Source: Escherichia coli (GTDB lineage Bacteria; Pseudomonadota; Gammaproteobacteria; Enterobacterales; Enterobacteriaceae). From it: a DNA stretch of 64,000 nt. Positions 14,893 through 62,144 of this stretch are shown here, piece after piece. Under the pieces are notes generated by a model. The model did not search any database. It had not been told where the DNA came from and saw only the letters and a program-made list of their open reading frames with translations. The number at the start of each line of letters is the position of its first letter. The first letter of the stretch is position 1. A program made the position numbers and the translations under genes. The DNA lies in assembly GCF_009931435.1 (NCBI RefSeq), contig NZ_CP043414.1, one strand, 5' to 3'.

Positions 14893-15897
14893 TTACAAGC
14901 CTAGCTTCACTAAACGTCGTGTATTTTCAAGATCGAGCTTTTCTGGATTATCACTATAAATAGTGTTGTTATTAACCTTGATCTCGCCCATATCACCGAT
15001 TTTTACACCGTCTTTAATAGGTTCACCGTTCATCATTGCCGTCGCAACCTGGACAAAAACCTTACCCGCAATCATAGGGTTTGAAATATATCCCCCATCA
15101 ATGGCACCTTTTTCGAGTAGCTTAATTCCCTGACCTGGAGTGAAGGTTCCAAAAACGCAAATTGCATCATTTTTCTTCCGCTTATCAATAGCACGCCCCG
15201 CACCAATTGGTCCTTGTGAACCAAATGACATAATGCCTTTAAGATCTTTATATTTAGACATTAAATCGTTCGTCGTGCGCATTGAATCATCCACCGACTC
15301 AGCAACACCAAAACGATCTTCAACCAACGTCATATTTGGATAATGTTCTTTTTGATAGGCAATCGCGGCATTGGCCCAGTCATTTACCAAAGGCACAGTC
15401 AGACTGCCGACAAACATGGCGTATTTACCTTCTTCGCCCATACACTTCGCCATATCTTTCATATGATTGGCACCCATTGTCTGGGTATTTAACAACTCAA
15501 AATCCCAATCTGCATTTTTTTGATCTGGTGATTCGTGGGTAATAACTTTAATACCGGCTTCTTGTGCACGCTTAAGTACAGGTTCAAGAACCTTTGCATC
15601 GTTAGGAACAACACCAATAACATCCACTTTTCGTGCAATTAAATCTTCAATCGCCCGAACCTGTTCAGCTGGATCTGCCGTTGTAGGGCCGACCTGCCAT
15701 GCATCAACCCCCAATAGTTTTCCTTCATTTTTAATGCCTTGTTCCATCACATTAAACCAGGGAATTCCACCGACTTTTACTACTACCCCCATCGTAAAAG
15801 GTTTATTCGCTTTTTGTGATGTTACAGTCTGATCAGCCCATGCAGCAGTGGAAGATAATACGGTAGCAATAAGGCAGGGTAAGATTAATTTTTTCAT
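14893..15897 (-). CDS. Periplasmic sugar-binding protein of the ABC transporter
   Basis: 334-aa ORF with signal peptide MKKLILPCLIATVLSSTAAWA and a periplasmic-binding-protein type I fold pattern; first gene after the regulator. Confidence 0.8.
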   Translation of the reverse strand: MKKLILPCLIATVLSSTAAWADQTVTSQKANKPFTMGVVVKVGGIPWFNVMEQGIKNEGKLLGVDAWQVGPTTADPAEQVRAIEDLIARKVDVIGVVPNDAKVLEPVLKRAQEAGIKVITHESPDQKNADWDFELLNTQTMGANHMKDMAKCMGEEGKYAMFVGSLTVPLVNDWANAAIAYQKEHYPNMTLVEDRFGVAESVDDSMRTTNDLMSKYKDLKGIMSFGSQGPIGAGRAIDKRKKNDAICVFGTFTPGQGIKLLEKGAIDGGYISNPMIAGKVFVQVATAMMNGEPIKDGVKIGDMGEIKVNNNTIYSDNPEKLDLENTRRLVKLGL

Positions 15898-16829: not shown

Positions 16830-17270
16830 AGTATCGGTCCGTTATTATCAAATTAGCATGCTTATATAATTAACTGTTCCCTCATAAAATAAAGTGATAG
16901 GAATCAAGATTCATTTTATAATTATAATCGCAAACAGGAATGGTGATCTTTATCACAAATTAAATTGAGAACACTCTACTATTTGACATTACTTTGAGAT
17001 ATCGGTCACTAAATAAGTCTTATTCTGCCATCTAACGAAAAATTTAAATACAAAAACAAAAATAATCGGGCATAGCAATCGCTTCCATTCATGACCGAAT
17101 ACGCCCGAATAAAACCGTTTATACCCACTTATCCTCTTTCGTTGCCTTCTTACATGCCTTGAATATTTTACATTTCTTATATTCAGCGTAATTTAGGAAA
17201 CATAATTTATGAGCAAAAAAAGCCCAAACTCAAAAGTTAAAGTTTATTTATATAATACATACAGATTATC

Positions 17271-33408: not shown

Positions 33409-33716
33409 AAGCTGCTCCCGGGCTTGTGAAAGCCCATGTCCATATTTTTGATGAAGGAAACAATAGGCAATCGCAGGCAGAGCAAACAGTGGATAAAAAG
33501 GCCATTTACTGGACTTTTGTAATATCAGTACAAAAATGCGATCCGCCTCATAACTTGCGATAACCCGGAAGCCTGCCGCAAAACGGCGTCTTGTGAGACG
33601 TGTCGCAAATTGACGGTTACATTACATTTGTCCAGCTTTTGGCAGTTTTGTCACATGGCAGGCCGTTGCCGTGCGCTCTTATCCTGTAAACAGAAAACCG
33701 TACCGGGAGAGAGGCA

Positions 33717-42428: not shown

Positions 42429-43322
<894 letters not shown>

Positions 43323-43701: not shown

Positions 43702-45261
43702 TTACTTAATATCTTTCACGCGCATACCGTTGATCTGTTCATCCGTGATGGTATTACCCGCTTTAAAGTAATCAACCACCGCGTGATAAACGTAATAACC
43801 GCCCGTCGTATTGCGCGCTTTACCCTCGGTAAACGCGGTAAAACCATCTCCACCATCAGCAAGGAAACTCTGAGTGGCAATGTGGTAAACCGTCGCATCT
43901 TCAATCGGTTTGCCATTCAGAGTCAGCGAGATAACCCGCTGACCAACCGGCTTGCTGCTGTCGTACTTCATTTCCAGGCCTTTCGATACCTGTAAAACGC
44001 CATTACTCAAACTTGCGCCGTGTTCCATCAAACCGCGTAATTGTTTACCCGTGAGTTCCATCGTCACCAGTTCGTTGGGGAACGGGAAGGTACTGATGAC
44101 GCCACCCATCGTAATTGCACCCGCCGGGATCTCATTGCGAATCCCACCAGAGTTGGTTAACGCCAACTGGGTATTTTTACCCGCCGCTACCAGTAAAGCG
44201 TCCGCCGCCAGGTTCCCCAGGGATGCCGATTCACCATAGGCACGTTTTAATTCAACTGGCGATTGCGCCACCGTTTGCTGCACGACTTCATCCAGCTTTT
44301 TATTCCAACTATCAATCACCTGTTTTGTTTGCGCATCGGGCTTCCACTCGTCGGCGTAAAGGGTTTTAAGCTCGAAGTTTTTCACCGTAAAAGTGTGCGG
44401 TTTCTCTTTGAAGTCGAGAACCAGTTTACCCACATCAATCCCTCCGCTGTCAGTGGAAAGGATGAGCGTATTGCCGACTTTAATCGGTTCCGGCGTACCC
44501 ACATGTGCATGTCCGGTGATCAAAATATCCAGCCCTTTCACCTGACTTGCCGTCTGTATATCTTTATCCAGCGCGCGACGCACATCTGTGCCTCCCATAC
44601 TGGACTGGCGGGCCGGAACACCTTCGTGAATCAGGGCGACGGTCAAATCAACCTTGCCTTTGAGTTCATCGATATAACGTTGTAACCACTTAATTTCATC
44701 ACGCGCTTCAATACCCACTCGCGTGGCAGCGGATACCGTGTCATTAAAGGCAAATACTCCGTGCAAACCAATCACACCAATTTTCACGCCGTCTTTTTCA
44801 ATAATGGTATATGGCTTATCCCAGAATGATTTACTGCTGTTCTGATAAAAAATATTACCCTGCACAATCGGGAATTTTGCCTGACTCAACTGTAATAGGG
44901 TGTTGTCCCAGCCGTGATCAAATTCATGATTCCCTATAGTGACCGCATCGAACGGCATGGTATTCATAATATCGATAATCGCCTTGCCTTTAGTCAGGCT
45001 GCTGATATACGGCCCGGTAAAATAGTCACCCGCATCAAAAAACCAGGTCGCTTTGTTTTTAGCTTTTTCTTGTTTAACAAGCGTAGTGATATTTGCCCAG
45101 CCGCCAATATCCCGTTTACCGTCAGCAATCCACGGCACTTTATAAGGCTCTACATGTGCATGGAGGTCGTTGGTATAAATAATGGTGACATCTTTGGCGC
45201 AGGCCCAAAACGGCAGTGTTAATGCGATACCCGCAGCAAGCATTTTAATTTTCATAAACAA
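43702..45261 (-). CDS. Periplasmic bifunctional metallophosphatase / 5'-nucleotidase, UshA-like (paralog 1)
   Basis: 519-aa ORF with signal peptide ([17 protein letters not shown]), calcineurin-like motifs ([20 protein letters not shown]) and a C-terminal 5'-nucleotidase domain. Not in the K-12 metF-metL interval. Confidence 0.85.
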
Positions 45262-45387
45262 TCCCTTCCAGTGAGATAAAGGATTGCTACATTACGTTCT
45301 GAAAGGCTTTTTTATGTGAGAATACTCACATCCAGAGGCGATAACTGTAGGACAAAATCAACGACCTTATGAAATCGTTGGTGATAT

Positions 45388-46515
45388 ATGTCAAATCTGT
45401 TTGCGATTAATGTCTGTAAAACGTTCGGTTGTCGAAATTTGGGATTGGCCTCATCGGAAGATTACAGTTGGCCAGACTATAAACTGGGTTTTCCGGCACT
45501 GCACTGCCAGGCATGCGGAAGTTACCCCCCTTTGTTTGATGAACAACAATTTCGTGACTGGTTGTCAGTTCACATGACTGCGTGTGCCATAGAAACAGGG
45601 CATTTTTGTCCATCATGCTATTGTAAAGAAAAGATTTTTTATGGCCACAACCCGCAGGGAACACAACGCGTTCAATGCCGTTCATGCAAAAAAGTCTGGA
45701 CTCCGAAACAGCAGCCAGCAAGAGAAATTACGTATCCCCAGTCCATTGAAACCGTTCAACTGTTCATGCCCTTTCAAGGAGCCAGCGCAGTACAAAAGCT
45801 CTATGTTTTAGTCAGTCTTGACGCCACTCGTGGCAACATCCTTCATCTCTCCACGAATTATACGCAACATCAGACAGGAGACAGTCTGCGGTACAGTTAC
45901 AGAGGCAATACAGAACCAACTGAGCACCATAGCGATATTGTGCAGAGGGTAGATATGCGTGAAGCGCAATTCTTGCGCCGGAGCCAGTTCGATGAAATTC
46001 AGTATGGCAGTGCTGTGCTCAAGCGCAACGGCAAGGGAGCCATACTACGCCCGGTTATCACGGCACACGGGCATTTCAGAATACTGAAAATCCGCTTTCC
46101 ACATGTCAAAACGCATATCATTTCACACGAATGTTTTCTGAGAGGCGCAATTATTACAGCCTGGGCAGATCAGTTCCGCCAACAACAAGGCGAACTTTGG
46201 TTCGTAGAAGAAGAAATCAGCGACCGTAACGCTGATATTCCCTGGCATTTTCAGGGAACGACATACCATGGTTGGTGGCAAAATCAGTGGCAACGCTGGG
46301 GGCAGGGGAATAACAGCAAGATGGTCTGCCTGCTCACAGGAGTCTCCTTAGAAAGGGGCGCAAATGTTTCTCTGGCAACCAGTCGTTGCTTTATCACATG
46401 GCTGACAGACCAACACGACTTTACCCAAAGCGCGTTATTATCCGCAGGTCGCGTAACGAAAATGCTGACCTCACTGGCGTTAAAATACAATGAATCGCTC
46501 ACTCCATCTTGTTAG
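45388..46515 (+). CDS. Hypothetical protein with N-terminal cysteine cluster (putative zinc-ribbon), function unknown
   Basis: 375-aa ORF divergent from paralog 1; N-terminus has CKTFGC, CQACG, CPSCYC and CRSCKK motifs within about 100 aa. I do not recognise the family. Confidence 0.6.
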   Translation: MSNLFAINVCKTFGCRNLGLASSEDYSWPDYKLGFPALHCQACGSYPPLFDEQQFRDWLSVHMTACAIETGHFCPSCYCKEKIFYGHNPQGTQRVQCRSCKKVWTPKQQPAREITYPQSIETVQLFMPFQGASAVQKLYVLVSLDATRGNILHLSTNYTQHQTGDSLRYSYRGNTEPTEHHSDIVQRVDMREAQFLRRSQFDEIQYGSAVLKRNGKGAILRPVITAHGHFRILKIRFPHVKTHIISHECFLRGAIITAWADQFRQQQGELWFVEEEISDRNADIPWHFQGTTYHGWWQNQWQRWGQGNNSKMVCLLTGVSLERGANVSLATSRCFITWLTDQHDFTQSALLSAGRVTKMLTSLALKYNESLTPSC

Positions 46516-46744
46516 TCAATACACTCGACAAACGACCATAAATTAATGGGATCACTATTTCTCATTTAATTAAATATATGAATGTATGACTGAAAAATAT
46601 AATCACAGTCAATGTTTAATTAATAACATTATTTGTTACTAAGATCACATAATACTTTCCTGACCTATGCTCTTATAAAAATAAGACACGGTGTTCCTTT
46701 TATTTAAATAATTCAACCAATGTAACAACCCCTATCAAGGAGGG

Positions 46745-48298
46745 ATGATGAGAACTGTATTTACGACTTTATCAGTCATATTCAGCGTGATGTTTTCTCA
46801 CAGTATACTAGCTCAGGACGTTACTATTTATTATACGAATGATATTCACGCACATGTCAATCCGGCAAAAATTCCCGCTGTTGATAAGAACAGACTTGTA
46901 GGTGGTATGGCTAATATTGCAGGCATCGTTAATGAAGCGAAGAAAAAAAACAAAGATGTCTTTTTCTTTGATGCAGGCGACTATTTTACCGGTCCGTATA
47001 TCAGTACCCTGACCAAAGGTGAAGCTATTATTGATATCATGAACACCATGCCCTTTGATGCGGTGTCCGTTGGTAATCACGAGTTCGATCACGGCGTGCC
47101 CAATATGGTATCTCAGTTATCAAAAGCAAAATTCCCCATTCTGCTGGGAAATATTTACTACACCGATACAAATAGACCAGTTTGGGATCATCCGTGGACC
47201 ATTATCGAAAAAGATGGTTTAAAGATTGGTGTGATTGGATTGCATGGTGCATTCGCTTTCTATGATACAGTCGCGGCAAAAGCACGTGAAGGCGTAGAAG
47301 CCAGAGACGAAATTAAATATTTAAATAAAGCACTTGCAGAATTAAAAGGTAAAGTCGACATTACCGTTTTGCTAATTCACGAAGGTGTTCCGGCGCGTCA
47401 ATCAAGCTTTGGTAGTAAAGATGTGGAGCGGCTACTACAGGCAGATATTGAGACAGCTAAAAAAGTGAATGGTGTTGATGTCTTAATTACCGGTCACGCA
47501 CATGTCGGAACACCGCAACCAATAAAAGTTAATAACACATTAATTGTATCTACCGATGCATACGGCACCGACATCGGAAAACTTGTGCTTGATTACAATC
47601 CGAAAACAAAGAAAATTGATAGTTATAATGGTGAGTTAATCACCATCTTTGCAGATCAATTTAAACCTGACACCATCGTTCAAAATACTATCGATAAATG
47701 GAGCGTAAAGCTTAACAAAATCACACAGGAAGTTGTCGGCCATTCTCCCGTAGTTTTAACACGTGAGTATGGCAGTTCTTCTTCTACCGGTAACCTTATT
47801 CTGGATGCAATGATGGAAAAAGCACCTGATGCCATTGCCGGATTTCAAAATAGCGGTGGGATGCGAGCTGATTTTCCTAAAGGTGATATCACACTGGGAG
47901 ATGTTATTAGCACATTCCCCTTTAATAATGACCTCATCGAGATGGATTTGACGGGCCGCGATCTCAAATCATTGATGACGCATGCAACCAATCTAACTAA
48001 CGGTGTGTTACAGGTTTCAAAAAGCGTTGCGGTTGTCTATGACAGCAAAAAACCACTCAACCAGCGGTTAATCTCTTTCACCATTAACGGCAAACCCGTG
48101 GAAGATAATCAAACATATCGTATTGCCACGCACTCCTTTTGTGCCAGTGGTGGTGACGGTTTTGAAGCATTTTTGAATGGAAAAAATGTGAAGACGATAC
48201 CGGGAACAACCTCGGCGGAATCTATCATCGATTATTTCAAAAATCATAAACCTGTCACCCCAGACTTAACTAAACGAGTCATGGACGTCGCCAAATAA
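46745..48298 (+). CDS. Periplasmic bifunctional metallophosphatase / 5'-nucleotidase, UshA-like (paralog 2, most divergent)
   Basis: 517-aa ORF with signal peptide ending ILA-QD and the same NDIHAH / GNHEFDHG / GHAHVG motifs. Confidence 0.85.
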   Translation: MMRTVFTTLSVIFSVMFSHSILAQDVTIYYTNDIHAHVNPAKIPAVDKNRLVGGMANIAGIVNEAKKKNKDVFFFDAGDYFTGPYISTLTKGEAIIDIMNTMPFDAVSVGNHEFDHGVPNMVSQLSKAKFPILLGNIYYTDTNRPVWDHPWTIIEKDGLKIGVIGLHGAFAFYDTVAAKAREGVEARDEIKYLNKALAELKGKVDITVLLIHEGVPARQSSFGSKDVERLLQADIETAKKVNGVDVLITGHAHVGTPQPIKVNNTLIVSTDAYGTDIGKLVLDYNPKTKKIDSYNGELITIFADQFKPDTIVQNTIDKWSVKLNKITQEVVGHSPVVLTREYGSSSSTGNLILDAMMEKAPDAIAGFQNSGGMRADFPKGDITLGDVISTFPFNNDLIEMDLTGRDLKSLMTHATNLTNGVLQVSKSVAVVYDSKKPLNQRLISFTINGKPVEDNQTYRIATHSFCASGGDGFEAFLNGKNVKTIPGTTSAESIIDYFKNHKPVTPDLTKRVMDVAK

Positions 48299-48332: not shown

Positions 48333-49958
48333 ATGCGAATGAAAACAGTGCAGCGTACTTTACTTGCCGCAACATTGCTGACTATTTTTTCGGTTTCAGT
48401 CATGGCGCAGGATGTCACGATTATTTATACAAATGATCTTCACGCTCATGTGGATTCTTATAAAGTGCCGTATATCGCAGACGGAAAACGCGACATTGGC
48501 GGCTTTGCCAATATATCTACTTTAGTAAAACAAGAGAAAGCGAAAAATAAAGCCACCTTTTATTTTGATGCTGGAGACTATTTCACCGGCCCTTATATCA
48601 GCAGTCTGACAAAGGGCGAAGCAATAATTGACATTATGAATACCATGCCTTTTGACGCAGTATCAATCGGTAATCATGAGTTTGACCATGGCTGGGATAA
48701 TGCCCTGCGACAATTAAGCAAAGCGAATTTTCCTGTTTTATTGGGCAATGTTTATCATAAAGAGAGTGAGAAACCCTTCTGGAACAAGCCCTACACCATC
48801 CTGGAAAAAGATGGCATCAAGATTGGTATTATTGGGCTACACGGCGTATTTGCATTTAATGATACGGTCTCGGAGCTCTCTCTCCAGGGACTCGATAATG
48901 ACAATAATAACCGCTTTGATAAATCTTCCGAGACCCTTAAGAATCAGGGGATTGAAGCACGTGATGAAGTGAAGTATTTGCAACATTATATCGACGAGTT
49001 ACGTGATAAGGTTGACCTCACTGTGGCGCTGGTTCATGAAGGCGTTCCGGCGCGTCAGTCCAGCATTGGCAATACAGATGTTAGACGCGCTCTTGATAAA
49101 GATATTCAAACCGCTAGCAAGGTGAAAGGATTGGATATTCTGATTACCGGGCATGCCCACGTCGGAACGCCAGAACCAATCAAAGTCGGCAACACCTTAA
49201 TCCTTTCAACTGATAGTGGCGGTATCGATATTGGTAAATTAGTCCTTGATGTCAACCCTACAGCTCGTACCCATAAAATGAAGAGCTTTGAGCTGAAAAC
49301 AGTTTATGCCGATGAATGGATACCCGATCCAACGACACAAAAAGTTATCAATGGCTGGAATAAAAAACTGGCGGATATTGTACGCCAACCAGTGGGTGAA
49401 TCATCGATTGCATTAACTCGCGCCTATGGTGAGTCATCGCAACTAGGCAACCTGTTTACCGATGCAATGCTTGTCGCTGCTCCGACTGCACAGATTGCAT
49501 TGATAAACTCCGGCAGCTTACGTGCGGATATAAATGCAGGCACGATTACCTTTGGCGACATTACCAGTACATTCCCCTTCAAGAATGAACTTACTGAAAT
49601 GGATCTCAGCGGTAAGGATCTGCGTAACCTACTGGAACACGGGGCATCGCTTACCAATGGCATCCTGCAAATGTCAAAAGGCGCAGAAATGCGCTATACC
49701 CCGCAGAAACCAGTAGGTCAGCGCATAGTATCTTTTAAAATTAATAGTGAAGAGATCGTTGATACGAATATTTACCATGTTGCAACAACGACTTTCCTTG
49801 CACTGGGGGGCGATGGTTTTCTGGCATTCAAAGAAGGGAAAAATGTTCAGGTCCGCGCCGGAAATAACATGTCCGATGTCGTGATCGATTATTTGAAGAA
49901 AGGCCACAAGATTACGCCTGCACAGGTAAATGAAATGCGGGTGGACGTTAGCAAATAA
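48333..49958 (+). CDS. Periplasmic bifunctional metallophosphatase / 5'-nucleotidase, UshA-like (paralog 3)
   Basis: 541-aa ORF, about 70 percent identical by eye to paralog 1, with an extra roughly 25-aa insert (ELSLQGLDNDNNNRFDKSSETLKNQ). Confidence 0.85.
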   Translation: MRMKTVQRTLLAATLLTIFSVSVMAQDVTIIYTNDLHAHVDSYKVPYIADGKRDIGGFANISTLVKQEKAKNKATFYFDAGDYFTGPYISSLTKGEAIIDIMNTMPFDAVSIGNHEFDHGWDNALRQLSKANFPVLLGNVYHKESEKPFWNKPYTILEKDGIKIGIIGLHGVFAFNDTVSELSLQGLDNDNNNRFDKSSETLKNQGIEARDEVKYLQHYIDELRDKVDLTVALVHEGVPARQSSIGNTDVRRALDKDIQTASKVKGLDILITGHAHVGTPEPIKVGNTLILSTDSGGIDIGKLVLDVNPTARTHKMKSFELKTVYADEWIPDPTTQKVINGWNKKLADIVRQPVGESSIALTRAYGESSQLGNLFTDAMLVAAPTAQIALINSGSLRADINAGTITFGDITSTFPFKNELTEMDLSGKDLRNLLEHGASLTNGILQMSKGAEMRYTPQKPVGQRIVSFKINSEEIVDTNIYHVATTTFLALGGDGFLAFKEGKNVQVRAGNNMSDVVIDYLKKGHKITPAQVNEMRVDVSK

Positions 49959-50036: not shown

Positions 50037-50897
50037 ATGTGTATAAAAAAGCACGGGATAGCTTTATCGATTCTATTAATACCTTGCATTGGAAACGCTC
50101 AGGAAATTAAAAGTGAGGAAGGCTGGTTACATCAAAGCTTGAATGTCATTGGTCGCACAGACTCTCGCTTTGGCCCAAGGCTGACTAACGACCTCTACCC
50201 TGAATATACTGTAGCAGGAAGAAAAGACTGGTTTGATTTTTATGGTTATGTTGATCTACCAAAATTCTTTGGCGTCGGCAGTCACTATGATGTTGGGATC
50301 TGGGATGAGGGCTCACCACTATTTACGGAAATAGAACCTCGGTTTTCCATTGACAAATTGACCGGATTAAATCTTGCGTTCGGCCCTTTTAAAGAATGGT
50401 TCATTGCAAACAACTATGTCTATGATATGGGTGACAACCAGTCATCCCGGCAAAGTACATGGTATATGGGGCTTGGTACAGATATCGACACGGGTCTACC
50501 AATTAAGCTTTCTGCCAATATATACGCCAAGTATCAGTGGCAAAACTATGGTGCCGCTAATGAAAATGAATGGGACGGATATCGATTCAAAATAAAATAT
50601 AGCATTCCTCTTACCCATTTATTCGGAGGGCGATTGGTATACAATAGTTTTACTAACTTTGATTTTGGCTCCGATCTTGCGGACAAATCACACAATAATA
50701 AACGAACCAGTAATGCTATTGCTTCAAGCCATATCCTTTCCCTGCTATATGAACACTGGAAATTTGCATTTACACTACGTTATTTTCACAACGGTGGACA
50801 ATGGAATGCTGGGGAGAAAGTTAACTTCGGAGATGGTCCATTTGAATTAAAAAACACAGGATGGGGAACCTATACTACTATTGGTTATCAATTTTAA
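50037..50897 (+). CDS. Tsx-family nucleoside-specific outer-membrane channel
   Basis: 286-aa ORF with signal peptide; [110 protein letters not shown]...GYQF follows Tsx nearly block for block. Confidence 0.88.
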
Positions 50898-51113: not shown

Positions 51114-53546
51114 CTACAACAACTGCGCCAGACGGTTAATATCCGACTGAATCGCCCCGGCGGTGACGTCGCGCCCTGCGCCTGGCCCACGGATCACCAG
51201 CGGGTTGTCGCGATACCAGCGGCTTTCGATGGCAAAGACGTTATCGCACGGTAGTAGTGATGCCAGCGGATGGTCTTCTCGCACCGCTTCCACGCCTACT
51301 CGCGCTTTGCCGTTAGCATCGAAACGCGCCACGTAGCGCAACACCAGCCCCATTTCACGGGCCGCTTCCAACCGTTGTACCATCTGCTCATTAAGTTCAT
51401 CGCCATTTTCAAAGAAATGGTCGATGCTGCCACCTTCGCAATGGGTTGGCACCAGTGATTCAACACGCACCTGGTCCGGTTCAATGTTGTAACCCGCTTC
51501 ACGCGCCAGAATCACCAGCTTGCGCATCACGTCTTTGCCGGAGAGGTCATCACGCGGGTCAGGTTCAGTTAAGCCCTGCTGCCACGCCTGATCCACCAGC
51601 TCGGTAAACGGCACGCTACCGTCGAATTGCAGGAACAGCCAGGAGAGCGTGCCGGAGAAGATCCCGCTGATCGACAAAATAGTGTCGCCGCTGTCGATCA
51701 GATCGCGCACGGTATGGTTGATCGGCAAACCTGCGCCGACGGTGGCGTTGTATAGCCAGTGACGCCCGGTTTTTTCGAACGCGTCGTGGATCTGTCGATA
51801 TTTATTGCTGTCGCTGGCTCCCGCCAGTTTGTTGGCACTGATGACGTGGAAACCGTGGCTGGCGAAATCGAGATACTGATCAGCAAGCTGCTGGCTGGCA
51901 GTAACGTCCAGCACAACTAAATCATCATACGGATGGGCACGCATCCACAGGAACAGCGACTCTTCATCCTGTTCGACGGCTTCATCATTAAAGAAGGCTA
52001 GCGCACGGCTGGCGTCCAGCCCGTCATAGCTCAACAGGCTGCGACGGCTGTCCACCACGCCTGCCAGCACAAATTCAAAGCCGGTGCGCGCCGAGAGTGT
52101 ACTCTGCTCACGGGCGAACAGTTCCAGCCAGCGGGAACCGATATTGCCCTTACCGAACAATACCAGGCCGATGCGTTTTTCTGCGCGGAAGACGGACTGA
52201 TGCAGCCCCTGAATCAGGCTTTCGGTCGGGCCGGTGCGCAGTACTGCCACCAGGCTGATGCCGTCATCGGACTGCCAGGTAAACTCGACCGGCTGGCCTT
52301 TCAGTTGCTGCCAGAAGCGGTGGCAATGCAGCGGGTTACGGGTGACGCCCGCCCCAACCATCGCCACCAGCGCCAGCCCCTGACGCAGACGCAGTTCGCC
52401 GGGTAATCCTGCTTCGTCGAGGATTTTCAGCGCACTGTCGGCCACTTCCGAGGTGTAGCAAAATTGCAGCAACTGGCGATCGTTATGCACGCCAACTGCC
52501 AGTGGGCGCACCTGAGCACGTTTCAGGATTTGGTCGATCTCTTTATGCGCCAGTTTAAAATCCTGACTGGCGGGCACCTGAAACTCAATCAAACAGACAT
52601 CATCGTGGCTGGTGACAATACGCGCGCCAGTACCTGAGGCCAGCACGCGTTCAATGCGCGTGGAACCTTGATCCGGCGTGTAGCTACAGCGCAGCTGCAG
52701 GTCGATTTCGCTGCCAGAAACTGGCTGTAAAGTACGGGCGTGAAGAACGGGGGCCGCCAGACGCGCCAGTTCGCTGGCTTCATCCAGACGCAGCAACGGC
52801 AGCAGGCAGGCGTCTTTCACTTTACGCGGGTCGGCGCTATATACCCCGGCGACATCGCTCCAGATGGTTACGCGGGAAACTCCCGCCAGCGCACCGATTT
52901 GTGTCGCGGAATAGTCGGAACCGTTACGCCCCAGCAGCACCGTTTCACCGGCGTTGTTACGGCTGATAAACCCGGTCACCACCAGACGTTTGCCCGGATG
53001 TTGTACCAGTAGCTGTTGCAGCAACGGGTAAGAAAGCCCTTCATCAACCTGCGGCTGCGCGGCGCGTTCAGCGCGTAAAAACTCGCGGGCATCAAGCCAG
53101 GCCGCTGGCAGCCCTTGTTGATTAAGTACCGCAGACATCAGGCGCGCCGACCACACTTCACCGTGGCCCACCACTTCCGCATACACCGCATCGTTAATAC
53201 CGCTGTCGAGCAGCGCCGCCAGGCGTTCCAGATCGCTGACAAAAGCGCTAATGAGGCTATCGGCTTCTTCAGCGGGTAGCAGGCCGCTAATCAGATCGCA
53301 CTGATAGCGACGCAGCGTTTGTTGAACCTGATGCGCAGAGAGACGATCGGTCTGGCTTAGTTTCAACCAGTTAATCAACTGGTTAGTGGTGCTACCGGCG
53401 GCGGAAACCACCATCATATCGTCAGGCTGAGAGTACTCCGCCATAATGCCCGCGACACGCAAATAACACTTCACATCAGCCAGACTACTGCCACCAAATT
53501 TATGCAGTTGACGACCTTTCGCCCCTGCCTGCGCAATCACACTCAT
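51114..53546 (-). CDS. metL: Bifunctional aspartokinase II / homoserine dehydrogenase II
   Basis: 810-aa ORF MSVIAQAGAKGRQLHKFGGSSLADVKCYLRVAGIMAEY. Confidence 0.95.
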   Translation of the reverse strand: MSVIAQAGAKGRQLHKFGGSSLADVKCYLRVAGIMAEYSQPDDMMVVSAAGSTTNQLINWLKLSQTDRLSAHQVQQTLRRYQCDLISGLLPAEEADSLISAFVSDLERLAALLDSGINDAVYAEVVGHGEVWSARLMSAVLNQQGLPAAWLDAREFLRAERAAQPQVDEGLSYPLLQQLLVQHPGKRLVVTGFISRNNAGETVLLGRNGSDYSATQIGALAGVSRVTIWSDVAGVYSADPRKVKDACLLPLLRLDEASELARLAAPVLHARTLQPVSGSEIDLQLRCSYTPDQGSTRIERVLASGTGARIVTSHDDVCLIEFQVPASQDFKLAHKEIDQILKRAQVRPLAVGVHNDRQLLQFCYTSEVADSALKILDEAGLPGELRLRQGLALVAMVGAGVTRNPLHCHRFWQQLKGQPVEFTWQSDDGISLVAVLRTGPTESLIQGLHQSVFRAEKRIGLVLFGKGNIGSRWLELFAREQSTLSARTGFEFVLAGVVDSRRSLLSYDGLDASRALAFFNDEAVEQDEESLFLWMRAHPYDDLVVLDVTASQQLADQYLDFASHGFHVISANKLAGASDSNKYRQIHDAFEKTGRHWLYNATVGAGLPINHTVRDLIDSGDTILSISGIFSGTLSWLFLQFDGSVPFTELVDQAWQQGLTEPDPRDDLSGKDVMRKLVILAREAGYNIEPDQVRVESLVPTHCEGGSIDHFFENGDELNEQMVQRLEAAREMGLVLRYVARFDANGKARVGVEAVREDHPLASLLPCDNVFAIESRWYRDNPLVIRGPGAGRDVTAGAIQSDINRLAQLL

Positions 53547-57959: not shown

Positions 57960-60900
57960 TTAATTACTCCCTTGCCTGATAATTGTAACTCCATTCCCTT
58001 TAGCTTTGGGATTATATTTTAGATAGGTGTTATTTGGTGTTCCCAAGTAACTACTGTATTCTTTTTTTCCCATTCCATTCATATAAGAATTCGTTAAATC
58101 TTTGCTTGAAAAATTTAGACTATCATAAACATCATTTTCTTTTGTTACTTTATTTCCTTTATCGTCAGAGTAAAAACCGTGAGTGTGATAATCGCCTACT
58201 CTCTCTGAACCTTCAGGGCATTTTATATTTCGCAAGTCTACACTATCATTATCATTTGAACTTATCGGATTCATGGGGAAATATTCACCTTGCTTCTTAC
58301 ATATTAGTCCACCATATTCTTTATTCTCGTTAATTGATTCTCCATTACACATTGCCAATGCAAATATTCCAATATCATCTATATTTTTTGATTTAAATTC
58401 ATATAATCCTAATGGATCCATGCCATTCACCGGGCTCAGCGGATATGTATACAGGTTCCATCCCCCCTTCAGCCCAATCGGATCCTGAGTGATATACCGC
58501 CCCTGCAGCGGGTCATAATAGCGGTGGCGGTTGTAATACAGGCCGGACTCCTCATCATACTGCTGACCCGGCAGGCGGATGAGCTGCTGCAGCTGGTGCG
58601 GGTTCTCTTCATTCAGCAGGTTGCCCCATTCATCGTATTCTGCGCACCATTCTGTTGCCCCTTCCGTGCTGATAAGCACCAGCGGCAGGCCGCGATGGTC
58701 GCAGTGGTACAGGTGGATTTTTCGCGCCGGCGTGTACACCGGTTCCATCTGGTTTTGCATCTGCGCCACCGTCAGGCCGCACGATGCCAGCCAGCGGCGG
58801 CTTTCCTCACTCACCCGGTCAGCCAGGATTTCACTTTCCAGCCGGTCGAGCATCTGCACCAGCACCGGCGGGAACACCACACTGCCACCGTCTTCGCCGC
58901 CGGACTGCTGAAGCGCATCCGCCAGGCTGCGGCGCTGCGTTTTCGCCAGCTCACCGGTGGCGGTTTCGACCCTGATGAGTGGCGTGAAGCTCCCCGGCTG
59001 ATAAACCGTCTGGATGCGGGTTCTGTCGTTCTGTATCGTGGTCAGCCGGTCGCCGTCCCAGCCGTACCAGGTCACTTCCGGTTTCCGTGACAGCGACATC
59101 CAGCCCGTCAGGTCCCGTTCACGCCGCCACACCCGTTTTGCCACCCTGCGGCCCAGCGGGTCGTAAAGATAGCGACTTTCGACCAGCGGCTCTGCATATT
59201 GTGTCCGCGTGTAGTGCACCAGCCGGTGCCGGCTGTCGTAATGGTACCGGTGAGTCCGCTCATCATCCGTGCGGATAACCCCTTCCGGGATGAGGTCGGT
59301 TTTCTCTGTCAGCCTGCCGTGACGGTCATACCGGTAAAGATAGTGCGCGTCACGGGCGATACGGTTATCCGGCCACATGCTGAGGGTGCTGTCCGGGTGC
59401 AGCTCCGGGTCGGGCAGGCGGTTACCTGCCGGGTCCGTGGCATACGGGATGCGGATATCCAGATTCGCTGCGGTGGTGTGAACGCCGGTCAGCCTGCCGG
59501 TGGTGCTGTAGCTGTAACTCCGGGTCTGGCGCGGGCTGCTGATGCGAATGAGTTCGCCGTTGTCGTTCCAGGTGTAATCGCGGTCATACTGCAGGCTGTT
59601 CAGGTGCTGGCTCTGTAACTGCCCGGCAGGGGTGTAAGCGGTGGTGAGTTCATAACGGCCGAAGCTGCGCAGCGTTTCCCGGTGCAGGCGGTCGCGGGTG
59701 AAATCCACCAGCGGTGTGTCGCCGAGTTTCATCCCTGCCAGGTAACCACTGCCATAAGTCAGCCATTCCACGGCGGGCAGGCTGTCCGGTATACAGCGGT
59801 TCGCCAGCCCCTGCGCGTTGTACGCATGTCTGGTTTCATGCTGCCAGAGCAGTGCTTCCGTCTGCGGGTGATGCACCGTCTGGCGCTCACCGGTCAGGCG
59901 GCCTTTCTCATCATACCCGTAATGCACCGTCACCCGGTGCCCTTCGCTGAGATGGCTGATGCCTGTCAGCCAGCCGCGTTCGTCGTACCGCCACTGTTCT
60001 GCGGTTTCACCATTCACCGTTCGCTGCGTGATGCGGTCTGCTTCGTCATAGTGCCAGTGGGTGACCAGTCCCTCATCCTCGCTGCGGATAAGTTTGCCGG
60101 TCAGGTCGTGGTGATAACGCTGTGTGCGGCCGTCAAAGCCGGTTTCCTGTATCAGCCGGTCGAGTACATCGTAACGGAAGGTGGTGTGGCTGCCGTTTTC
60201 GTTTGTCAGGCGGATGACCCGTCCTGCAGCATCGTATTCCATACTGCGGGTCAGCCCGCCCTGCGTGGTACGGACGGCCTTTCCCCACGCATCGTACTGT
60301 GCCCCGTATCTGCTGCCGTCCGGGGCAATGACGGTGGTCAGGTCACCGGCGGCGTTGTATTCATACCGCGTTTCATGGCCCTGCGTGTCTTTCACCGCAA
60401 TTAACTGTCCATGGCTGTCGTATGCGCGGCACTGGCTCAGGCCTTCCTCGCGGTGCACCGCCGTCATCTGCCCGAAGCGGTCATGGTCATAACGGGTCTG
60501 GTAGCCGGAACAGTCGGTGAAGGTCAGCAACTGACCGTAACGGCTCCACGTCATGGTTTTCCGGCTGCCGGTGGCATCTTCCGTTGCGCAGGGGAAGTCA
60601 CTGTGTGGATTATCATAACGGTAGCGGATGATATCGCCGTCAGGGGCAGTTTCCTGAATCAGACGGCCGGATTCATCATATTCCCGGCGTATTTCCAGCC
60701 CGTCAGGCCCGGTGGCTGACGTTAACTGGTTGTGGTGGTTATAGTAAAACGCCGATGCCCTGCCATCCGGCGTGGTGATGCGCGTGATGAGTCCCGTCAC
60801 CACATCCGGGCTGTATTCTGTTGTCCGGCCTGCGGCATCCGTCTGTGTCCTGAGCCTGCCCACCGCGTCAAACTGACTCTGCGTGACGCTGCCGTCCGCG

Positions 60901-62144
60901 TGTTCCTTTTTCACCACCCGCTTCAGCCCGCCTTCGCCTGCGGTATGCAGGACTTCATGGCGGTCCAGGCTGTCGGTGATGGTGATGCGGTCTTTCTCAT
61001 ACTGATACGTGTAGCTTAAGCCTGCCGGGTTTAGCTGTTCTGTCACCCGCCCGTCGCTGTCGTAACGGTAACGGATTTCCGGCCGGCCCGTGTGACGGTG
61101 CGCCACCATCCGGCCCCGGTATTTATCATCGTAAGTAAAGCTGCGCACCTGTGTATTGCTGCGGTCATACACCGCCGCCAGTTCGCCGCGCGGCGTCCAG
61201 CCATAGCGCACCAGCGGCGTGGCTGGCAGGTTGTCCGGGTATTCCGGGTCGTGCGTCAGCCACACGGCAGACAGACGGATACCGTTGTCCCGGCCATATT
61301 CCGTGTAGTCCGGCAGGGTATCAGGAAAAGCGGACTGTTCCGCCCCGCCGGAAGAGGCCTGCTGCCGGGCCTCTTCTGCCCGCTGCGCCTGCGTGGTCAG
61401 TGCCAGCCGGAAGTGACGCCCGGCACCATCCGTCACGCCGGTGATTTCGCCGCTGAATTCACCGGCGGCTTCGCGGTGAAACGTCTGTGTGCGCCCGAAG
61501 CGGTCCACCAGCCCGGTCAGTACCCGGTACGGCGGCAGCGGCGCGGGCAGCACCTCATCCGCCTCCGGCACCCGCTCACACCAGCCGAGTACCCACCACG
61601 GCCCCTGCGGACTGTTCGTCGCCAGATAACGATGCGGACTCAGGCGAAGCTCTTCCGGCAGCGCCTGCCAGAGTGCGGCCAGCCGGTGACCTTCATCCAG
61701 TCTCAGGACGCCGCCGCGCACCAGCCAGAGTGACTCGCTGCGGCTGTAACCGTCCTCACCGGGAAACAGGTGCTCAAAATACAGGCTTCTGCCGCCGTTA
61801 TCACTGAGTATCAGTGTGTTATCGCGCAGCTGTAAGCGGATATCCGCAGGCATTTTCCAGCCGGGGCCGAGAATACCCACCGGCGCGGGCGTTTTTGTCC
61901 GGTAACTGCTGTACGTGCGGGAGAGGATGAACGGCAGCGGTCCGGGCAGGGCAATGTCTGTCTCGCCGGGAAGGACCTTTGCACCGAGCAGGGGATTGAC
62001 CGGATGGCCGGACGTCACCCCGCCGGGGCACACCGAACAGGCCACGCCGGTGGGGGCACCAATACGTACCCCGGCTGAACCCTGAACAATGCTACCGCCA
62101 TACTGCGTCATGTCGCCCTGACGCGCCGCCGGTTTTCCGCTCAT
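57960..62144 (-). CDS. Rhs-family polymorphic toxin: PAAR-like N-terminus, YD-repeat core, variable C-terminal toxin tip
   Basis: 1394-aa ORF starting [42 protein letters not shown] (as in E. coli RhsA-type proteins), long YD-repeat region, core ending ...[10 protein letters not shown], then about 147 aa of unrelated AT-rich-encoded sequence. Confidence 0.93.

Follow-up and report, generated by a model that had tools for sequence, protein, structure and literature searches.

A short inverted repeat lies between two divergent genes of an Escherichia coli accessory island, and its place raises the question of what it does there: whether it is a site for a regulator, and if so for which one and on behalf of which gene, or a repeat devoid of any regulatory role. 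A sequence-only reading had taken it for a perfect palindrome in a 126-bp intergenic region and for a candidate operator of a dimeric regulator placed between two divergent starts, the product of the flanking cysteine-cluster (Cys-cluster) gene being the implied binder. The window, by which we mean the whole stretch of 64,000 nucleotides of E. coli chromosome that was analysed (contig NZ_CP043414.1 of assembly GCF_009931435.1), holds this island inserted between metF and metL, with the following genes.

42429-43319, minus strand: metF, one border of the accessory island
43702-45255, minus strand: nucleotidase paralog 1, a UshA-like metallophosphatase/5'-nucleotidase with an N-terminal signal peptide (Pfam Metallophos and 5_nucleotid_C; RefSeq)
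45388-46515, plus strand: the Cys-cluster gene, encoding a cysteine-rich protein of 375 aa annotated as 'cytoplasmic protein'
46748-48298, plus strand: nucleotidase paralog 2 (Pfam, RefSeq)
48333-49958, plus strand: nucleotidase paralog 3 (Pfam, RefSeq)
50037-50897, plus strand: Tsx-like outer-membrane nucleoside channel (Pfam, RefSeq)
51114-53546, minus strand: metL, the other border of the accessory island

About one third of the complete E. coli genomes (1,844 of 5,426), ExPEC lineages among them, carry the island, which is missing from K-12 and from ETEC H10407. Under the name of genomic region GR31 it figures in the BEN2908 genome paper, which proposes a nucleotide-processing role for it, leaves its regulation unmentioned and gives the island nucleotidases about 27% identity to Bacillus subtilis YfkN (PMC12928451); UshA itself is a distant relative only of these UshA-like periplasmic enzymes. 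Gene content differs among carriers. E. coli ZH063 has a short island comprising nucleotidase 1 and the Cys-cluster gene, the 3' end of which overlaps metL, with paralogs 2 and 3 and the tsx-like gene absent; paralog 2 is frameshifted in IHE3034, the tsx-like gene is annotated as truncated in strain R32_14_1F, and the locus of strain IH5, a patchwork of truncated genes, was left out of the analysis. Elsewhere in the window, beyond yiiX, an open reading frame of 1,394 aa occupies 57960-62144 on the minus strand, in a stretch for which the counterparts in RefSeq bear annotations of an RHS element core protein and of mobile elements (an ISAs1 transposase and a group II intron ltrA).

The non-coding features on which the argument turns are these.

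45289-45294, minus strand: putative -10 hexamer TAATGT of nucleotidase 1, with a putative start at about 45281-45283
45295-45312: conserved block CGTTCTGAAAGG.TTTTTT, between the predicted CRP box and the leftward -10 hexamer
45314-45331: the inverted repeat, made up of ATGTGAG (45314-45320), the 4-nt spacer AATA and CTCACAT (45325-45331)
45315-45330: predicted CRP box core TGTGAGAATACTCACA, with its centre between 45322 and 45323 and an expected 22-bp CRP footprint at 45312-45333
45353-45358, plus strand: putative -10 hexamer CAAAAT of the Cys-cluster gene, with a putative start at about 45364-45366
45359-45380: inverted repeat CAACGA-N10-TCGTTG, straddling the putative Cys-cluster gene start
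46634-46649: second, candidate CRP-type box TGTTACTAAGATCACA, 98 nt upstream of the paralog 2 ATG, with one core mismatch

Taken as a mere sequence, the element is partly what had been claimed of it: its arms of 7 nt each are 100% complementary, but the AATA spacer is not self-complementary, so that we are dealing with an interrupted inverted repeat rather than with a perfect palindrome. The length of 126 bp holds if the TTG at 45261 is the start of nucleotidase 1; counted from the ATG at 45255, which is the RefSeq start and is kept across genera whereas the TTG is non-conserved, the intergenic region measures 132 bp (45256-45387). As a generic repeat the element is not beyond chance, since shuffling the 132-bp region produces a 7-bp inverted repeat with a spacer of at most 10 nt about 8% of the time. 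Its motif identity and its conservation are beyond chance, and it is on these two properties that the case is built instead.

Read one base inward, the repeat becomes TGTGA-GAATAC-TCACA, an exact match to TGTGA-N6-TCACA, the consensus of the box recognized by CRP, the cAMP receptor protein (PMC3105977, PMC4287617). The 64-kb window contains one perfect occurrence of this pattern where 0.06 would be expected, the corresponding figure for the 132-bp region being about 1e-4. When scored with a position weight matrix derived from 127 distinct RegulonDB CRP sites (Table S4 of PMC3105977), the box attains 11.25 bits of a possible 15.46; under leave-one-out scoring only 6 of the 127 documented sites equal or exceed it, which places it above the other 121 and in the top 5%, and the matrix scan of the window ranks it 4th among 63,985 positions. 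A positive control is provided by TGCGATCCGCCTCATA (33537-33552), upstream of ptsA (33717), which scores 8.60 bits and ranks 20th; a ptsA/frwC site identical to it is a CRP ChIP-seq peak in ETEC H10407 (PMC4287617). Our box outscores 72% of the 64 ChIP-seq sites, ptsA/frwC included, and a perfect core is present in only 5 of those 64. The H10407 table shows no peak at the island box itself, as that strain lacks the island.

A second CRP-like box, TGTGAGACGTGTCGCA (33592-33607), lies near ptsA. The two top-scoring CRP-type boxes of the window, TGTGAACCAAATGACA and GGTGATCTTTATCACA, lie at 15215-15230 and 16942-16957, within another accessory island, one with genes for a sugar ABC transporter, a DeoR/GlpR regulator and an AraD-like epimerase; only 146 of 5,426 genomes have it.

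On the strength of its motif and of the conservation described below, the repeat is very likely to be a functional, high-affinity site for cAMP-CRP, the global sugar-starvation regulator. The box is, in other words, a previously unannotated member of a well-known class of bacterial control element, and it is missing from the curated CRP regulon lists that were consulted because the island is absent from K-12 and H10407. A CRP site with a perfect core is occupied by CRP in any event, and all genera concerned here possess CRP. The functional context, periplasmic nucleotidases next to a Tsx-like channel, is compatible with this reading.

Conservation was assessed by a profile search with homologues of the cysteine-rich protein, which yielded 37 loci in other species and genera (Citrobacter, Klebsiella, Enterobacter, Kosakonia, Phytobacter, Kluyvera, Pluralibacter, Superficieibacter, Pseudocitrobacter, E. 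albertii and Salmonella arizonae, among others). Almost all of these loci have the divergent pair of nucleotidase 1 and the Cys-cluster gene in the interval from metF to metL, and the nucleotidase 1 orthologues, always divergent from the Cys-cluster gene, share 87-98% amino-acid identity across genera. At the homologous place, the box departs from the core by a single mismatch or by none in 32 of the 37 loci (it is perfect in 25), and two further loci have a two-mismatch box. Across 32 distinct orthologous sequences the half-sites carry 1.84 bits per position and the spacer 0.83 bits, or 0.60 without its invariant first G; 17 different spacers occur among the 32, every one of them of 6 nt. TCACA is present in 32/32 sequences and TGTGA is nearly invariant, degenerating only to TGCGA, TGTGC, CGTGC and TGGGG, such that G2 and G4 are never lost; G4 and C13 are the most conserved positions of CRP boxes (PMC3105977). 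The same holds at a finer scale among nine E. coli alleles (86-100% identity), where TGTGA and TCACA are invariant and the spacers read GAATAC, GAGTAA and GAGCAA.

In four Enterobacter loci (L018, L020, L037 and L038) the orthologous box reads TGCGAG(T/C)CTGCTCACA. Half-sites of the form TGCGA are typical of Sxy-dependent CRP-S sites, a hint that the box of these species may be connected with DNA-uptake and nutrient regulons. RegulonDB lists, at -41.5, an sbmC site, TGCGAGTCTGCTCGCA, with which the Enterobacter box agrees fully or almost fully in its left half and spacer.

This profile, as far as aligned sequences can tell, is one of sequence-specific recognition by CRP, and it bears on every other account of the repeat. 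A structural hairpin, be it a DNA cruciform or an RNA stem-loop, would also be expected to combine a conserved stem with a variable loop, and both a hairpin and a chance repeat without regulatory role draw support from the 8% of shuffles that yield a comparable repeat. The variants of the left arm (TGCGA, TGTGC, CGTGC, TGGGG) are nevertheless uncompensated, the right arm showing no matching change, which implies that it is the sequence that is conserved and not the pairing. Furthermore, the repeat lies upstream of both putative starts and is thus probably untranscribed, it has no T-run, and the terminator scan does not list it, while mere chance is excluded by the persistence of the repeat, with its spacing fixed, in more than 10 genera. 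We accordingly rate a hairpin or an accidental repeat as extremely improbable.

No better prospects await an operator of the LacI/GalR family, in the manner of the symmetric lac operator TGTGAGC-GCTCACA, bound by CytR or by some sugar or nucleoside repressor. Its attraction is that TGTGAG...CTCACA resembles the half-sites of the lac operator and that nucleoside genes are often under CytR control. Here, however, the half-sites are 4 nt apart (AATA) and do not abut around a central CG, and the C of CTCACA varies: at C45325 most alleles and genera have A or T, and most of the nine E. coli alleles have A. CytR pentamers (TGCAA/TTGCA) are found neither in 45256-45387, the block at 45295-45312 included, nor in 46516-46747; given this, and a single CRP box in this region instead of the tandem pair of the CytR type, CytR co-regulation was discarded. 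The odds that a repressor of this family owns the site are, in our estimation, exceedingly slim.

The alternative closest to the original proposal is that the repeat is the operator of a locus-specific dimeric regulator, foremost the Cys-cluster protein, which would thereby regulate its own gene and control the nucleotidase. Layouts in which a regulator is divergent from its target are common, and the protein has zinc ribbons of the IS1 InsA type together with a transposase/integrase-like fold, making DNA binding plausible. One more argument for this operator comes from the inner arm base G45320, the first base of the spacer, which is more conserved than CRP recognition alone needs. What is conserved, on the other hand, is exactly a CRP box with 5-bp half-sites and a free 6-nt spacer. 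The outer A/T pair of the repeat (45314 and 45331) is largely kept, but the seventh arm base is neither symmetric nor conserved, for G45320 is invariant while its partner C45325 varies among C, A and T in the E. coli alleles and across genera. The Cys-cluster protein, moreover, evolves much faster (58-80% identity across loci versus 87-98% for nucleotidase 1), while TCACA stays invariant. In S. arizonae, a single lineage and as such weak evidence, a perfect box and an intact nucleotidase 1 stand beside a Cys-cluster pseudogene from which residues 1-126 are deleted and which has a premature stop, the deletion coming within a few bases of the CRP box on its right-hand side. With the CRP box conserved in place of the 7-bp arms, and with a box that has outlived the Cys-cluster gene in that lineage, the Cys-cluster protein as implied binder of the repeat finds no support, and its ownership of the site is very unlikely; the blocks at 45295-45312 and 45359-45380 are better candidates for a local factor than the palindrome is.

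If CRP is indeed the ligand, the next issue is which of the two genes it serves. The box sits nearly midway between them, at 67.5 and 65.5 nt from their ATGs. No sigma-70 consensus promoter with -35 and -10 elements is found in 45150-45500, and no -35 element is recognisable; the putative -10 hexamers match the consensus at 3/6 and 4/6 positions. Their placement relative to the box is nonetheless suggestive: the first base of the leftward hexamer is 28.5 bp and that of the rightward hexamer 30.5 bp from the box centre, the canonical Class II distance being 29.5 bp (CRP at -41.5, hexamer from -12 to -7). In the leftward hexamer T-12, A-11, A-10 and T-7 are invariant at one offset in 32/32 sequences, position -9 being free, and the rightward hexamer, likewise at a fixed offset, reads CAAAAT in 28/32 and CAGAAT in 3/32. 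The spacing between box and hexamer shows zero indels in any genus, even though the 20 nt to the right of the box, up to the rightward -10, are variable (0.70 bits over the 32 sequences). A Class I position (-61.5) was considered and rejected, as the starts would then fall 4-6 nt from the ATGs, which is incompatible with the conserved Shine-Dalgarno regions.

The hexamer spacing, the lack of -35 elements and the incompatibility of Class I with the Shine-Dalgarno regions make two back-to-back Class II promoters served by one CRP dimer the best reading of this geometry, and one that we hold to be probable, with starts that are themselves predicted. What stands of the original proposal is hence, very probably, a site for a dimeric regulator common to both starts; the word 'operator' does not suit it, since a place about 41.5 bp from both putative starts, in the absence of -35 elements, is that of an activator.

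With glucose absent and cAMP high, CRP would then occupy the box at 45315-45330, overlap the -35 position, touch the alpha and sigma subunits and recruit RNA polymerase in Class II fashion, so that nucleotidase 1 would be switched on leftward and the Cys-cluster gene rightward from one predicted CRP site. Rightward read-through may reach nucleotidases 2 and 3 and the Tsx-like channel, which would put the whole island module under catabolite control, as is the case for tsx, cdd, udp, nupC, nupG and deo. We infer that in such a back-to-back arrangement both polymerases cannot sit on one CRP dimer simultaneously; with one polymerase at a time on the shared dimer, one direction may dominate.

How far such control might extend depends on what follows the two divergent genes. 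No terminator is predicted between the Cys-cluster gene and paralog 2, and the second candidate box, TGTTACTAAGATCACA, lies in the 232-nt gap before nucleotidase 2; transcripts of paralogs 2 and 3 and of the Tsx-like gene may accordingly arise in two ways, through read-through and from a promoter of their own. This second box scores 11.51 bits, ranks 3rd in the window and is identical in IHE3034, although canonical promoter spacing had to be rejected for it: the sole predicted promoter places it near -77 and off-phase, and it stays a candidate. The short gaps that precede paralog 3 and the tsx-like gene contain no comparable CRP-type box, and an exact copy of the palindrome, which had been suggested as worth searching for upstream of paralogs 2 and 3 and the tsx-like gene, is absent there. 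A third apparent box, GGTGATATATGTCAAA (45380-45395), overlaps the start codon of the Cys-cluster gene and is unconserved in other alleles and genera, and we ascribe it to chance. The arrangement differs in Enterobacter and in part of the Citrobacter and Escherichia loci: nucleotidase 2 and tsx follow nucleotidase 1 on its own strand, and there the box would govern the whole set leftward.

CRP may not act alone. Two further non-coding blocks match the CRP box itself in their degree of conservation across genera. The block at 45295-45312 carries 1.5-2.0 bits at most positions across the 32 sequences and may be the site of a second factor or a docking tract for the C-terminal domain of the alpha subunit at the rightward promoter; since both this 18-bp block to the left of the box and G45320 are conserved beyond what CRP needs, together they suggest an additional factor. 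The inverted repeat at 45359-45380 has a right arm, AAATCGTTGGT, that is invariant in 32/32 sequences. Neither block gives a significant RNA structure: folding is no better than that of shuffled sequence in the two 5' regions (z = -0.7 and -1.5), the value for this repeat being z = -0.7. Both blocks are possible sites for a second, locus-specific factor.

The Cys-cluster protein naturally comes to mind in this role. It consists of two CxxC...CxxC clusters (zinc ribbons) followed by an RNase H/DDE-transposase-like fold, and an AlphaFold2 model built from a 51-sequence alignment is confident (pLDDT 94), a first model from a 13-sequence alignment having been set aside as unusable (pLDDT 35). The Pfam Zn_ribbon_InsA domain is matched in 14 of 51 family members, and the match of the window's protein to the N-terminus of IS1 transposase is weak; the acidic residues are partly conserved in the family (D145 in 75%, D202 in 86% and E248 in 100% of members). 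The protein is thus of transposase-derived type, with a fixed chromosomal position across genera.

Its alleles are unusually diverse within E. coli. Between allele classes the amino-acid identity is about 72-74%, against 97-98% for the neighbouring nucleotidase 1 (loci L002-L009 and L014), and the allele of the window is found at 99% identity or more in only 89 genomes. Escherichia sp. MOD1-EC7003 (L014) pairs the intergenic sequence of the window with the other class of Cys-cluster gene, a mosaic that suggests recombination inside this gene.

One could envisage from these elements a compound switch, whereby CRP would supply the global input and the Cys-cluster protein would act as an auto-regulated local regulator through the blocks at 45295-45312 and 45359-45380. 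We regard this as unlikely on balance, albeit less so than ownership of the palindrome by the same protein; if true, a domesticated IS1-like transposase would be the transcription factor of a nucleotide-scavenging module across Enterobacteriaceae.

These results shift the focus from the palindrome to the two other conserved non-coding blocks and to the transposase-derived protein. They also supply a testable regulatory logic, catabolite control via CRP, for an uncharacterised nucleotidase/Tsx-like island that many other Enterobacteriaceae carry, and the divergent pair would make a convenient system for the study of promoter competition.

Compared with known CRP sites of E. coli, the box shares their exact 16-bp core and their A/T-rich left flank, and differs from them in that the first base of its spacer is unusually invariant and in that its binding is predicted; its left half, TGTGAG, matches the lac site. 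Thematically the island resembles the nucleoside-scavenging genes tsx, cdd, udp, nupC, nupG and deo in combining nucleotide or nucleoside acquisition with catabolite control, and CRP sites are documented, or known from ChIP-seq, for tsx, cdd, nupC, nupG and udp (RegulonDB, PMC4287617). The architecture is nonetheless different, for the CRP/CytR nucleoside genes have tandem CRP sites about 52 bp apart together with CytR half-sites, neither of which was found in the intergenic regions 45256-45387 and 46516-46747.

A closer parallel is the divergent malI/malX pair of K-12. RegulonDB places many activating CRP sites at -40.5 to -43.5, and its site ECK120013520 is listed for both malI (-43.5) and malXY (-41.5). 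As is predicted for the island, one CRP box stands at Class II distance both ways, and one arm is a catabolic or uptake function while the other is a small, separately transcribed gene. The two systems differ in the divergent gene, malI encoding a LacI-family repressor and its island counterpart a transposase-derived zinc-ribbon protein. In strength, too, they part company, since the malI/malX site scores 8.79 bits against 11.25 for the island box, which is much nearer the consensus. Lloyd and co-workers are said to have found, in 2008, that the malI and malX promoters both depend on a single site and that MalI represses both. The main text of PMC3105977 counts malI-malXY among the pairs regulated by different CRP molecules, in conflict with the single site of RegulonDB; in the same paper 11 divergent pairs are counted that have one CRP site each, and El-Robh and Busby (2002) are credited with having shown systematically that divergent promoters can be activated from one CRP target. 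An architecture in which one CRP site serves two promoters is therefore known, if uncommon, and the island box would represent a second natural case, and a much stronger one, of a single CRP dimer placed to serve a back-to-back pair of Class II promoters.
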